From: a virus
Lineage: Duplodnaviria > Caudoviricetes
Strand: one strand, 5' to 3'
Length of the DNA stretch: 64,000 bases
Virus record (IMG/VR): IMGVR_UViG_3300015607_000582
Location: 64,001 to 128,000 of that record
Shown: positions 3,110 through 8,961 of the stretch, in pieces
Layout: every line of letters starts with the position of its first letter
Position numbering within the stretch: the first letter of the stretch is position 1
Made by a program: the position numbers and the translations under genes
Notes under the pieces: model-generated
Told to the model about the DNA's origin: nothing
Database searches by the model: none
What the model saw: the letters and a program-made list of their open reading frames with translations, nothing else

Positions 3110-3496
3110 TCAGTCGGCAGCGGGCACGACGTGCCAGCGGTTCTTGATCTTCGTCAGCGTGCCGACCAGCTCGCCGGGGAAGTCGTAGCCGTCGTTCCAG
3201 ACGCCCCGCTTGGCGCGGTAGACGTTCACGCCCTCGGAGGGCTTGTCGCCGACGAACACGAGCGGCAGCACATCCTCGAACTGGCCGGTCTCCTCGCACT
3301 TGACGACCTCGCCGGACTCCTCGTAAGCGTCCCACGCCATCGCGATCTGGCGATCCTGAGTCGCCTCGACGCGCGGGTCAATGTTCCAGTGGTTGCTCGG
3401 CTTGTGCGCGAAGGCGAAGGCATGCGCCTTCTGAACCTCACCGTCGAGGATGACGTTGTGGGTGCGCTTGCGGAACGTGTAGATGTAGATGCCCAT
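3110..3496 (-). CDS. Hypothetical early protein
   Basis: MGIYIYTF start after AACGGAGACCACCGACC and a class I promoter. Confidence 0.7.
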   Translation of the reverse strand: MGIYIYTFRKRTHNVILDGEVQKAHAFAFAHKPSNHWNIDPRVEATQDRQIAMAWDAYEESGEVVKCEETGQFEDVLPLVFVGDKPSEGVNVYRAKRGVWNDGYDFPGELVGTLTKIKNRWHVVPAAD

Positions 3497-3534
3497 GGTC
3501 GGTGGTCTCCGTTCAGTGTGGCCTTCTGGTGTCC

Positions 3535-3600
3535 ACTCTACCCGATCCATCGGACAAAGCAACCCACCCGTTCCACAAAAGTTCGCTATTTGCGAGATTT
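3535..3600 (-). promoter_or_regulatory. Class I early promoter plus upstream block
   Basis: AAATCTCGCAAATAGCGAACTTTTG...TTGCTT-16nt(CGATGGATCG)-TAGAGT. Confidence 0.75.
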
Positions 3601-4087
3601 ATGCGCGAACAGCCATGGGGAAATCCCATCCATGGATGGCCACAGGACGCCCCACAGCCCGCGCCACCAGCGGGTCGCGACACGAGTAGCCGGGCATGAG
3701 GTTGGTGACCTGCCTGCCGAGCATGAGGCGGCGGTTGACGATGATCGGAGCGAACAGGTTGATGGTCGCTCGCTTCGGCTCACGCGGCACGTTCACCACC
3801 GCAAGCACCTCGACGTCCTCTGCCCTGTCCAGCTCGATCTGCGCCAGCTCCTCGTCGGAGACCTTGACCTCGAAGCTCCAGTGGAACGCCCACGGGATGG
3901 TGACCGGCAACGCGACGCTCGGGGTGTCAGTCGACTGCAGCCACGCGAGCGGACTGTCAGTCCCACCGACGACCACCCAGCTCGTCTCCTCGACGAAGCC
4001 GGGGATCCCGTCGGGGAACTCGATGAAGGAGTCGTCCGGGGCCACGATGGCCCCGTGACGACCCTCCATGCGATGCCGGTCACCCAT
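3599..4087 (-). CDS. fliW: FliW family protein (flagellar assembly factor / CsrA antagonist homolog)
   Basis: IEFPDGIPGF, LAWLQS..P.VA.PV..P, ATINLFAPIIVN, GRQV and Y..RDPL motifs in correct order; length slightly extended at C-terminus. Confidence 0.88.
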   Translation of the reverse strand: MGDRHRMEGRHGAIVAPDDSFIEFPDGIPGFVEETSWVVVGGTDSPLAWLQSTDTPSVALPVTIPWAFHWSFEVKVSDEELAQIELDRAEDVEVLAVVNVPREPKRATINLFAPIIVNRRLMLGRQVTNLMPGYSCRDPLVARAVGRPVAIHGWDFPMAVRA

Positions 4088-4091
4088 CGTG

Positions 4092-5978
4092 TCAGTCGTC
4101 CATGTCAGTCGGCGGGAACAGCTCGTGGTCAGTCGAGTCGCGGATCACGAACGAGGTGTCACACGCGCCGCCCGCGCAGTCGTCGACCAGCGAGCCGTCC
4201 TCGTACTCGATGTCGCGCCCGGCCACCGTCCACTCGGCGAGCACGTCAGCCATCTCGTCGACCGGGACGTGCTTCATGGGCTCGAAGCTGTCAGCCGTCT
4301 CGCGCGAGCCCTCGCGGTAGAACGTCGTGCCCTTGAGGTGCGGCAGGTACTCCAGCCAGAGGCCGCCCAGCTCCTCCACCGGGAAGTCCTTGGGGAGGTT
4401 GATCGTCTTCGACACGGCGCTGTCGACGTGCTTCTGGACGACGCGCTGCATCTCCATGTGGGCACGCGGCGTGACGTCGTACGCGCCCTCGACCAGCTCG
4501 GGGTGATCCGTGTACTCCTGCGACACCACGAGCGTCTCCGCGATGGTCTCGCGCTGCTTGGCGTCGACCGTACGACGACGGCGGATGTAGACCGGGCTGA
4601 ACACGGGCTCGACGCCGCCAGTGACGCCATGCACCATGGAGGTCGTGCCGGTCGGGGCGACCGTGAGCAGGCAGCAGTTGCGGATGCCGTGCTCCTTGAT
4701 CTTGTTCTTGATGCCACGCTTGAGCGTCTTGGCGAATCCCGACTGCAGGAAGCGCGGGTCGTAGAGGGGGAACGGCCCCTTCTCGATGGCGAGGCTCACC
4801 GAAGCGTCGTAGGCGGTGTTCTTGATGACCGACATGAGCTTGTCGACGAACTCCAGCGCCTCGTCGGACGAGTAGCGCATGCCGAGGTCGAGCAGCATCG
4901 AGTGCAGCCCCATGACGCCCAGACCGATGCGACGCTCCTCGTGCGCCACCTTCTCGTTCTCGGGCAGCGGGTAGTTGGCCACGTCGATGGTGTCGTCGAG
5001 GTAGCGCACGGCCAACCTGACGCTCTCGTCGAGCTTGTCCCAGTCCATCTTGCCGTCGACCACGAAGCGCGGCAGCACGAGCGCACCGAGGCAGCAGTTG
5101 GCGTACGGCGACAGGGGCTGCTCGCCGCACGGGTTCGTGGCCACGAGGTCGCGCACGTAGGCGATGTTGTTCATGCGCTGGACGAGGTGCCAGTTGAGCA
5201 GGCCGGGCTCGCCGTTCCGCCATGCGTTGCCGACGAGCCACTCCCAGAGGCGGGTGGCGTTGATCGTGCGCCCCTCGCGGTCGGGCAGGCCGCCGAAGCG
5301 CAGCGGGATCTCCTCGCCGTTGCGCACCATCTCGACGAACTTCTCCGTCGGCATGTCAGCCGGGATCATCACCGAGATGTTCGCGTTCGCGATCTCGCCC
5401 GTCTTGAGCTTCGCGTCGAGGAACTCCTCGACGTCCGGGTGGTCGATGTTCAGGCAGAACATGAGCGCGGCGCGGCGACCGCCGCCGTCCTTGATCTCCT
5501 CGCCGATGCCGTTGATGACGCGCATCAGCGACACCGCCCCGGTGGCCGTGCCGCCCATGCCGCCGATGGGGTAGCCGCGCGGGCGGACGGGGGAGAAGTT
5601 GAGCCCGACACCGCCGCCGCGAGCCGAGATGGTGGCGACGTCGCCCATCGCCTTGCCCCAGCCCTCGATGGTGTCCTCGGTCGGCGCGACGTAGCAGTTG
5701 CTCGTCTGCTGGATCTTGCGGCCAGCGCCGTACCAGTGGCGACCGCCGGGCATGAAGTAGCTGTCGGCCAGCTCGCGATGGAATCGGTGGAGGTAGACCT
5801 CGGCCTTGCCGTTGTGCTCGGCACGACTGGCGGAGTAGGCGAGGCGGTACGCGCCCTCGCTCCACGTCTCGACCGGGACGCCATCCTCGTCACGCTTGGC
5901 GTACCGCTCTCCGAAGATGGTCTGGCCCAGTCCCTTGGGCTCGAAGGCGGGTGCTGCAGGGGCTACTTCGGTCGTCAC
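4092..5978 (-). CDS. nrdJ: Class II (B12-dependent) ribonucleotide reductase
   Basis: SNCY, GGGVG, TNPCGEQ, CCLG, RRIGLGVMG, VAPTGT, SKTIN; C-terminal CxxGxC; GTG start after GAGGAG. Confidence 0.9.
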   Translation of the reverse strand: MTTEVAPAAPAFEPKGLGQTIFGERYAKRDEDGVPVETWSEGAYRLAYSASRAEHNGKAEVYLHRFHRELADSYFMPGGRHWYGAGRKIQQTSNCYVAPTEDTIEGWGKAMGDVATISARGGGVGLNFSPVRPRGYPIGGMGGTATGAVSLMRVINGIGEEIKDGGGRRAALMFCLNIDHPDVEEFLDAKLKTGEIANANISVMIPADMPTEKFVEMVRNGEEIPLRFGGLPDREGRTINATRLWEWLVGNAWRNGEPGLLNWHLVQRMNNIAYVRDLVATNPCGEQPLSPYANCCLGALVLPRFVVDGKMDWDKLDESVRLAVRYLDDTIDVANYPLPENEKVAHEERRIGLGVMGLHSMLLDLGMRYSSDEALEFVDKLMSVIKNTAYDASVSLAIEKGPFPLYDPRFLQSGFAKTLKRGIKNKIKEHGIRNCCLLTVAPTGTTSMVHGVTGGVEPVFSPVYIRRRRTVDAKQRETIAETLVVSQEYTDHPELVEGAYDVTPRAHMEMQRVVQKHVDSAVSKTINLPKDFPVEELGGLWLEYLPHLKGTTFYREGSRETADSFEPMKHVPVDEMADVLAEWTVAGRDIEYEDGSLVDDCAGGACDTSFVIRDSTDHELFPPTDMDD

Positions 5979-6049
5979 TTGACTCTCTCCTCGTTGGTCA
6001 TTCGGGGGCATGTAAAGGGGCGAGCAGCCCACTGGCGAACCAGCGGGCG

Positions 6050-6061
6050 GCACCATTTAGG
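6050..6061 (-). promoter_or_regulatory. Class III (late-type) motif variant
   Basis: CCTAA-ATG-GTGC in the nrdJ leader. Confidence 0.4.
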
Positions 6062-6143: not shown

Positions 6144-6169
6144 ATGCTACTGACCGCGTCGGACGAACC
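6144..6169 (-). promoter_or_regulatory. Class II (middle-type) promoter
   Basis: GGTTCGTCCGAC-N8-TAGCAT. Confidence 0.75.
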
Positions 6170-6184
6170 TCTCGACTGACATGC

Positions 6185-6217
6185 AAAAGGGGCTGGCCGC
6201 GAGTGCGACCAGCCCCT
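6185..6217 (-). terminator. Intrinsic terminator
   Basis: GGGGCTGGTCGC-ACTC-GCGGCCAGCCCC-TTTT. Confidence 0.75.
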
Positions 6218-6355
6218 GCCCCGGACGACCAACGTCGGGATGCAGTAGCCCGGCAGGCCATACGGCGAACGGAGGAACACCGACCTGCCGGGCGACGAGG
6301 GGAGACGCCGACCAAAGCATCTCTCACCCTCGCCCCGCGCTCTAGGCGCGGAAAC

Positions 6356-6808
6356 TCACTTGGCGATGTACTGGAGCACGGCGAACATCGTCGCGCCGGT
6401 CAGCACGCCGATGCCGAAGAGGTTGACGCCAGCGGCAGCCAGCATCGACCAGCTCGGGCGCGTGACCTGCGTGACGACCAGCTCTCCGGGGAGGAGCGGG
6501 TTGTCGAGCCAGTCGCGCTTGTGCGCCTCGAACTCCTCCGGGGTCATCAGCCGCTTGGCCGTCTCGTCGACGTAGTCGAGCGGCGACTTGCCGGGCTCGG
6601 TCTCGCCGAGCGAGGCAGCGCCCACGCTCGTCTCCTCCGCGCCGTTGTCGTGCTGCGTCACGATGCGCGACGTCGGGTCGGGGCGACGGTGTGCGGGCTC
6701 GGTGGCGTTGACGCGCTCGACGTTCGCTGGCGCAGTCCACGCCCCGTTGTCGGCCGGTGCGATGACCGGCTCGGTGTCCTTGGTGGTGTCGTTGACGCTC
6801 TGGCTCAT
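6356..6808 (-). CDS. Hypothetical protein with C-terminal transmembrane helix
   Basis: MSQSVND..., hydrophobic C-terminus. Confidence 0.6.
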   Translation of the reverse strand: MSQSVNDTTKDTEPVIAPADNGAWTAPANVERVNATEPAHRRPDPTSRIVTQHDNGAEETSVGAASLGETEPGKSPLDYVDETAKRLMTPEEFEAHKRDWLDNPLLPGELVVTQVTRPSWSMLAAAGVNLFGIGVLTGATMFAVLQYIAK

Positions 6809-7766: not shown

Positions 7767-7833
7767 ACTCTACCCGATACATCGAGAAAAGCAACCCCAT
7801 TGTTCCGCAAAAGTGCGCTCTTTGCGAGATTTT
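7767..7833 (-). promoter_or_regulatory. Class I early promoter plus upstream block
   Basis: AAAATCTCGCAAAGAGCGCACTTTTG...TTGCTT-16nt(CGATGTATCG)-TAGAGT. Confidence 0.75.
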
Positions 7834-8034: not shown

Positions 8035-8325
8035 TCACTCGACCACGGCGAGGATGTCGTTCTCGCCGAGGACGATCCACTTCTCGCCCCCGACCTCGAC
8101 CTCGGTGCCCGCGTAGCGAGGCACGAGCACGATGTCACCCGAGGCGACTGACATCGGCACCCGCTCGCCCTTGACCCATGCGCCTGAGCCGACGGCGATG
8201 ACCTCGGCACGGATCGACGCATCCCCCGTCGCGGCACTATCGACCAGCACGATGCCCGAGGCTCGGGTCGTCTCCTGCTCGATGTGGCGGACGGCCACGC
8301 GACTGCCCAGTGGCTTGATCCCCAT
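8035..8325 (-). CDS. groES: Co-chaperonin GroES (Cpn10)
   Basis: IKPLGSRV, SGIVL, VIAVGSG, GDIVL..YAGTEV, ENDILAVVE. Confidence 0.93.
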   Translation of the reverse strand: MGIKPLGSRVAVRHIEQETTRASGIVLVDSAATGDASIRAEVIAVGSGAWVKGERVPMSVASGDIVLVPRYAGTEVEVGGEKWIVLGENDILAVVE

Positions 8326-8733: not shown

Positions 8734-8961
8734 CTACTGTAGGCCGAAGCCGTGTTCCCTGTACCACTCGAAGCAGAGGTTGACCGCTTCCGCGTGGCGC
8801 TCGATCTTGCCTGTCTTGACCCGGTGACCGTAGGCATGGAACACCTTGCTCCGCAGGTTCGCGGGCAGCTCGTACCAGTGCTCTCGACACGCGAAGTGCT
8901 CGTACGGAATGCGCTCCTTGCACCCGAGCACCGGGCACGCCTTGGTCAGCTCCTCACTCAC
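8734..8961 (-). CDS. Small Zn-finger-like protein
   Basis: CPVLGC...CREHW. Confidence 0.6.
   Translation of the reverse strand: MSEELTKACPVLGCKERIPYEHFACREHWYELPANLRSKVFHAYGHRVKTGKIERHAEAVNLCFEWYREHGFGLQ

Follow-up and report, generated by a model that had tools for sequence, protein, structure and literature searches.

The question raised by this locus is why a bacteriophage should encode FliW, a protein that in bacteria partner-switches between flagellin and CsrA and allosterically inhibits the RNA binding of CsrA, when neither a flagellin gene (PF00669) nor a csrA gene (PF02599) was found across the 143-kb phage genome. The gene lies in a stretch of 64,000 nucleotides of an IMG/VR virus record, which is referred to here as the window and whose first letter is position 1 of all coordinates unless a genome position is named. 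It is placed as follows.

3599-4087, minus strand: fliW, 162 aa from the ATG at 4087, with the stop codon TAA at 3599-3601

A sequence-only reading of this DNA had placed a full-length FliW with the motifs FPDGIPGF, WLQS, TINLFAPIIVN, and GRQV at the same positions; the open reading frame is real and all four motifs are present in its translation, although the strand was missing from that description and is added here as minus. An alternative in-frame ATG at 4069 (M7) gives the 156-aa protein of the public gene call, and the whole FliW domain is retained with either start codon. The Pfam FliW profile PF02623 matched the protein with an E value of 4.4e-30 (104.4 bits against a cut-off of 25), the alignment spanning model positions 1-122 of 122 and protein residues 22-140, and a six-frame search of the genome recovered the same FliW at 105 bits. 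All eight of the NCBIfam FliW equivalog models (NF009799 among others) also matched, yet each below its cut-off, the best being NF009793 with 107.6 bits against 130; the protein is therefore a divergent FliW that is not the equivalog of any curated subgroup, and this does not affect its membership in the Pfam family. No family for the phage FliW was found in PHROGs. The nearest solved structure by sequence was 5dmb_A, the Geobacillus FliW of the FliW-CsrA complex (E 7e-18). The AlphaFold2 model of the phage protein had a pLDDT of 93.4 and a pTM of 0.87, and the top six Foldseek matches to this model were FliW structures (2aj7, 5dmd, 5dmb, and 5jak; E 7e-13 to 1e-11, TM 0.78-0.91), with the first non-FliW match at only E 0.2. 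Thus, the phage gene encodes a true but divergent, full-length FliW, and it does so in a genuine phage genome.

The window belongs to a single IMG/VR virus record of 142,928 bp, which has a CheckV completeness of 96% and in which almost all genes share one strand. Genes in the window include those for a portal, a large terminase (TerL), a DnaE-type polymerase, a helicase, an NAD-dependent ligase, and the phage's own GroES co-chaperonin (8035-8325, minus strand). Searches of the record detected neither a tyrosine nor a serine integrase, and likewise no tRNA, CsrA, or flagellin, so the phage looks lytic; it is probably a large lytic phage of an uncultured high-GC actinobacterium. The phage also encodes a protein with a cREC_REC (cyclic-phosphate-processing receiver) domain at 669-1034 on the minus strand. 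The codon usage of fliW had been described as phage-like, which agrees with its GC3 of 0.86 against a genome mean of 0.875 (sd 0.047). In bacteria, FliW typically occurs in a flagellar operon beside flgL and/or csrA, a setting that does not define the family, and this setting is absent around the phage gene, whose neighbours are nrdJ and small phage genes of unknown function, in keeping with the earlier remark that no flagellar genes are nearby.

Stray host genes do occur in large phages, and fliW might be a neutral passenger in the form of a host gene that was captured by chance without any role in infection, or of host DNA that was misassembled into the viral contig. The relatives of the phage gene bear on this explanation. 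From an exhaustive HMMER search across 1.84 billion representatives, 2,629 FliW relatives were obtained, only two of which were below E 1e-30, and a word-indexed protein search returned the phage FliW itself and one relative only. The phage FliW lineage comprises the three members found, namely the window copy and two copies on short contigs. The closer of these (P0005, on the 0.9-kb ENA contig L062) is 64-66% identical in FliW and 79% identical in NrdJ, with DNA that is 77% identical to the window and with the same promoter after fliW as in the window, and the more distant one (P0006, on L002, a 1.07-kb ENA scaffold of 53% GC) is 45-46% identical in FliW and follows an nrdJ whose encoded C-terminus is 41% identical. 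The nrdJ-fliW order is kept in both L062 and L002, and the three FliWs group together as a single clade (SH-aLRT 97). As judged from the coding sequences, FliW is evidently under purifying selection in the phage lineage, as is shown by the dN/dS of the window copy against L062, which was 0.18 by maximum likelihood and 0.49 by NG86, the latter value being only moderately low and the more distant pairs being saturated. An intact and selected nrdJ-fliW pair in three contigs of 53-66% GC, with the frame open and dN/dS below 1, is evidence against a host gene that was acquired by chance or by misassembly. Furthermore, fliW is flanked by phage-specific promoters within an array of genes on a single strand, it has the genome's own GC3, and no bacterial FliW found shares more than 45% identity with its product. 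We therefore regard a gene without a role in infection as very unlikely.

If fliW does have a role, the stage of infection at which it would be expressed depends on its transcription unit, for which the following features were found in the window.

4092-6056, minus strand: gene for an nrdJ-type (class II, B12-dependent) ribonucleotide reductase, with a match to Ribonuc_red_lgC (E 2e-102) and a weak match to the RNR-II insertion domain; the true start may lie downstream of 6056

6144-6169, minus strand: phage-specific class-II promoter-like motif, GGTTCGTCCG-N10-TAGCAT, recognised by motif count

7297, 10219, 11399, 14115, 15171, 17081, 31069, 32674, 49118, 52530, 54035, and 54345, minus strand: other sites with GGTTCGTCCG-N10-TANNNT

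54816, plus strand: the plus-strand site with GGTTCGTCCG-N10-TANNNT

6185-6216, minus strand: GC-rich hairpin followed by TTTT, terminator-like, which ends the structured RNA upstream of nrdJ

6185-6351, minus strand: structured intergenic RNA of ~165 nt (fold z = -5.6 over 6150-6360)

3535-3562, minus strand: sigma70-like early-type promoter, TTGCTT, a 16-nt spacer with the palindrome CCGATGGATCGG, then TAGAGT

638-665, 1645-1672, and 7767-7794, minus strand, with genome position 8742-8769, plus strand: the other copies of the early-type promoter

The gap of 4 nt that had been reported between nrdJ and fliW is correct, the nrdJ stop codon being followed by CACG and then by the fliW ATG. Upstream of the pair, no promoter-like motif other than GGTTCGTCCG-N10-TAGCAT could be recognised. 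When up to 2 mismatches are allowed, its more general form, GGTTCGTCCG-N10-TANNNT, matches the window 15 times, where chance would give 1.2; the early-type site at 3535-3560 accounts for one match, and 13 of the remaining 14 are on the minus strand, while the sole plus-strand copy precedes the plus-strand helicase gene. On the 5' side, the terminator-like hairpin at 6185-6216 ends the upstream structured RNA and thereby sets the limit of the nrdJ-fliW unit. A consensus promoter and terminator scan returned nothing relevant around fliW, and it misses this hairpin because only four T follow the stem. On the 3' side, the limit is marked by the early-type promoter at 3535-3562, which directly follows the fliW stop codon and starts the next cassette, with the leader AACGGAGACC...ATG at 3494-3513. 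Promoters of this type (TTGnnn-16 nt-TAnAGT) occur four times in the window and five times in the genome, with 0 predicted by chance, and the spacer of all five holds the palindrome (C/T)CGATnnATCGG, which is likely an operator. The most economical reading of these elements would be a single nrdJ-fliW transcript of class II, that is, of the replication stage, bounded by 6169 and 3562. The structured RNA that precedes this unit may be a regulatory sRNA. Rfam detected no known RNA family in the window, the structured RNA at 6185-6351 included, and thus no B12 riboswitch was found before nrdJ. A hairpin loop of the structured RNA, UUCCUCCGUU at 6268-6277, is complementary to AACGGAGGAA-type leaders.

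This promoter assignment bears on a proposal of the sequence-only reading, in which tandem ACGGA motifs at about 592-611 were regarded as CsrA sites in early leaders that FliW would de-repress. The tandem motif is real and lies on the minus strand as CAACGGAGACCGACCAACGGAGATGACC...ATG, but it is indistinguishable from a Shine-Dalgarno sequence. A AACGGAGA element is found before the ATG, at Shine-Dalgarno distance, after all five early-type promoters, and GGA occurs within 20 nt before 81 of the 152 gene starts (ANGGA before 28), as Shine-Dalgarno pairing predicts; ACGGA is therefore not separable from the ribosome-binding site. In addition, the AACGGAGA element accompanies a single promoter class, and the de-repression of early leaders by FliW is a poor fit because fliW appears to be driven by the class-II promoter at 6144-6169 and not by an early-type promoter.

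In B. subtilis, CsrA antagonism needs the FliW residues P26, F58, N108, A111, A122, K123, and Q124, of which P26, F58, N108, A111, and Q124 surround CsrA N55, while A122 and K123 contact the CsrA core via a salt bridge (Oshiro & Kearns, bioRxiv 10.1101/2020.07.02.184341). When these residues were mapped through an ungapped HMMER alignment to 5dmb_A, the phage equivalents were P29, L60, N110, A113, G124, R125, and Q126, respectively. Five of the seven are identical to the B. subtilis or the Geobacillus residue (G124 is Gly as in Geobacillus), and the remaining two are conservative replacements, F to L and K to R, with the charge of the K123 salt bridge kept.

A model of the complex between the phage FliW and a Thermoleophilia CsrA dimer reached a score of 0.70, the best of three controls reaching 0.02, and this result may echo the solved complex 5DMB. 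Because this similar complex has already been solved, the pass shows likeness and not binding by the phage copy. Among solved complexes, 58 of 80 attain the mark applied to the model, and 2 of 110 mismatched pairs do so. The runs share at least 75% of their contacts, and the partner pLDDT did not fall below 81. The modelled FliW contacts fall at CsrA residues 44-62, including N56, and the contacts with the lowest error join CsrA N56 to FliW Q126, V97, I28, L60, and P29, the cluster already published as proximal to N55. Only 28 of the 83 columns that are conserved in the bacterial sister clade, and only 8 of the 21 such columns that are also at the predicted interface, are unchanged in all three phage FliWs, indicating that the phage FliW surface has drifted. 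Some of the drifted positions (GIPGF and WLQS) revert to the general family consensus.

Taken at a little better than even odds, the main role that we propose is that of a functional phage FliW, cotranscribed with nrdJ, that would neutralise host CsrA during lytic infection. The nrdJ-fliW pair would be transcribed together from the phage-specific class-II promoter in the course of lytic infection, and the FliW produced would probably dock on the C-terminal extension of the host CsrA dimer, as bacterial FliW does, with the docking centred on a conserved Asn (N55 in B. subtilis and N56 in Thermoleophilia CsrAs). The docked FliW would allosterically block the binding of CsrA to RNA, and translational repression by CsrA would be relieved in the infected cell. 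Such relief would be expected since the phage adds FliW without matching csrA or flagellin. In this proposal we infer the binding, its timing, the identity of the host, and the mRNAs that would be de-repressed.

The drift of the surface could also be taken to mean that, after an old capture, the FliW fold was repurposed to bind another host or phage partner, for instance a different protein that has an extended C-terminal peptide, and now acts outside the flagellin-CsrA switch. A long stem branch leads to the phage clade, and 55 of the 83 columns conserved in the sister clade differ in one or more of the phage FliWs, 13 of the 21 predicted interface positions among them. Every NCBIfam FliW equivalog score is below its cut-off, and the constant pairing with nrdJ, and not with a flagellar gene, may point to another functional setting. 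However, the seven residues required for antagonism are all kept or conservatively replaced, the N55 cluster is reproduced by the predicted interface, and neither a CsrA-like protein nor a motif mimicking the CsrA C-terminus was found in the phage. A new partner of this kind therefore seems unlikely to us.

The same grade, that of an unlikely explanation, was given to flagellin as the main target. Bacterial FliW binds flagellin besides CsrA, and the phage FliW could bind the N-terminal D0/D1 region of the host flagellin and disturb its homeostasis, its secretion, or the assembly of the filament, with any effect on CsrA being secondary. The outcomes could be a change in motility, an altered supply of flagellar receptors, or limited superinfection by flagellotropic phages. 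The B. subtilis residues protected by flagellin (3-11, 22-28, and 95-115; PMC6070490) overlap the GIPGF and TINLFAPI blocks that are kept in the phage protein. On the other hand, conservation is lowest in the N-terminal loop (W1), with GRHG or GSRG in the phage proteins as opposed to an unvarying S/T-R-F-G in the sister clade. Furthermore, FliW departs from the FliS/flagellin/FliW complex at FlhA (PMC6070490), and for this reason a surplus of FliW is not known to prevent the export of flagellin. If flagellin binding was retained, host flagellin could soak up the phage FliW and blunt its effect on CsrA, which would weaken the proposed main role. The opposite case, in which FliW would not be sequestered by flagellin, would be made at the stage of DNA replication, and would strip CsrA as a dominant antagonist from host mRNAs as well as from the AACGGAGA-type leaders of the phage, is in our view quite unlikely. 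If it were true, the phage FliW would be the first inhibitor of the Csr global regulator among viral proteins, and it would belong to a broader phage strategy, so far unrecognised, against the flagellin-FliW-CsrA axis.

Comparison with known systems helps to define what would be particular about neutralisation of CsrA by a phage FliW. With the Hag-FliW-CsrA switch of B. subtilis and Geobacillus thermodenitrificans (5DMB), the phage protein has in common the Pfam family and the fold, the motifs GIPGF, WLQS, and NLxAPI(V/I)xN, the retained antagonism residues, and predicted contacts that centre on the N55-equivalent Asn. In contrast, it is only 27-29% identical to these FliWs, its ~20-residue C-terminal tail is common only with the actinobacterial clade and not with the FliWs of the switch, and its gene adjoins nrdJ, whereas the bacterial gene is located in a flgK-flgL-fliW-csrA flagellar operon. 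Since the phage has neither a translationally coupled csrA nor a flagellin gene, the 1:1:1 stoichiometry of the bacterial switch is absent. If the proposed role is correct, a virus that brings FliW but neither csrA nor flagellin would upset the stoichiometric balance of the host switch. The whole CsrA regulon could thereby be released during infection, a way of taking over the host that would be new, and the protein would be a natural tool to probe CsrA control in the poorly known, uncultured Actinomycetota.

CesT, which is carried on the horizontally acquired LEE island, offers another comparison. This type III secretion chaperone of enteropathogenic E. coli binds and inhibits CsrA, according to the work cited in PMC7366521. 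CesT is similar in being a CsrA antagonist that is a protein and not an sRNA, and in tying the activity of CsrA to the state of a secretion system; it differs from the phage FliW in its unrelated fold and family, its non-viral origin, and its other mode of CsrA binding, and no homology between the two was seen. Prophages with TldR-FliC(P) remodel flagellin (bioRxiv 10.1101/2025.07.22.666180) and are likewise mobile elements that interfere with flagellin expression. They bring a flagellin and an RNA-guided repressor and no FliW, the term being absent from that report, whereas the phage described here is without flagellin and csrA and is apparently lytic.

As for FliW in other viruses, the statement in the sequence-only reading that no characterised phage FliW was known held up, in that no genuine one was present in 50,697 INPHARED records or in the literature searched, and full-text literature searches gave no report of a phage-encoded FliW. 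Two tblastn matches in INPHARED, MT836588.1 (L063) and MT836129.1 (L064), were rejected as phage FliWs, being bacterial flgK-flgL-fliW-csrA-fliD fragments. Both records are entitled 'UNVERIFIED: Bacteriophage sp.' and come from human faeces, and the parts examined contained no phage genes. The survey of IMG/VR, which consisted of scans with the single protein, the alignment of the phage clade, and the NLxAPIVIN motif only, gave no other viral FliW, and of the nine loci with the NLxAPIVIN motif none (0/9) was a FliW by HMM. A scan of JGI metagenomes detected 80 FliW loci, all of them at most 45% identical, and none shares any further gene with the phage. The FliW family and its mechanism are already known; what is new is a virus that deploys FliW without the partner genes.

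The bacterial relatives give some indication of the host. The nearest bacterial FliWs are 39-44% identical and come from Thermoleophilia/Gaiellales MAGs and from MAGs titled 'Actinomycetes' or 'Actinomycetota', with 61-70% GC. In the phylogeny the phage clade is sister to these FliWs (SH-aLRT 90), on a long stem of 0.79 changes per column. A sister group was thus found, but the phage clade falls outside it, and the donor lineage is not pinned down by the tree. The chromosomal FliWs of this group (L013, L027, L016, L015, and L020; P0007 and P0012) are the closest outside the phage clade and have a C-terminal PV(A) tail and a similar GC content, but they are encoded in flagellar operons and have motifs of their own, GMIGF and WLHS, where the phage clade keeps the family-general GIPGF and WLQS. 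The bacterial sister genes end flgN-flgK-flgL-fliW operons, some of which continue with csrA, and csrA directly follows fliW in three MAGs (L015, L020, and L021). In two Thermoleophilia/Gaiellales MAGs (L016/L057 and L027/L058), csrA is located outside the ~5 kb retrieved downstream of fliW. One CsrA with an extended C-terminus and an ...(A/E)EN motif was found in each of the five MAGs checked, and these two traits mark the FliW-regulated type of CsrA. The sequence-only reading had pointed to a flagellated, csrA-positive, Thermoleophilia-like host, with which the nearest homologues and the presence of csrA in 5/5 MAGs agree; however, with the long stem and a phage clade that is not nested, such a host is the best available guess and is not secure. 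nrdJ was uninformative as a host marker, with at most ~40% identity over most of its length among 301 Actinomycetota genomes and with matches that bore no taxon labels.

Among other members of the family, a Kineococcus sequence (L030) has two FliW-like stretches in tandem (4764-5081 and 5373-5663), and five metagenomic proteins of 260-326 aa (P0008, P0009, P0011, P0017, and P0018) contain two FliW domains each, indicating that duplicated or fused forms of FliW exist.
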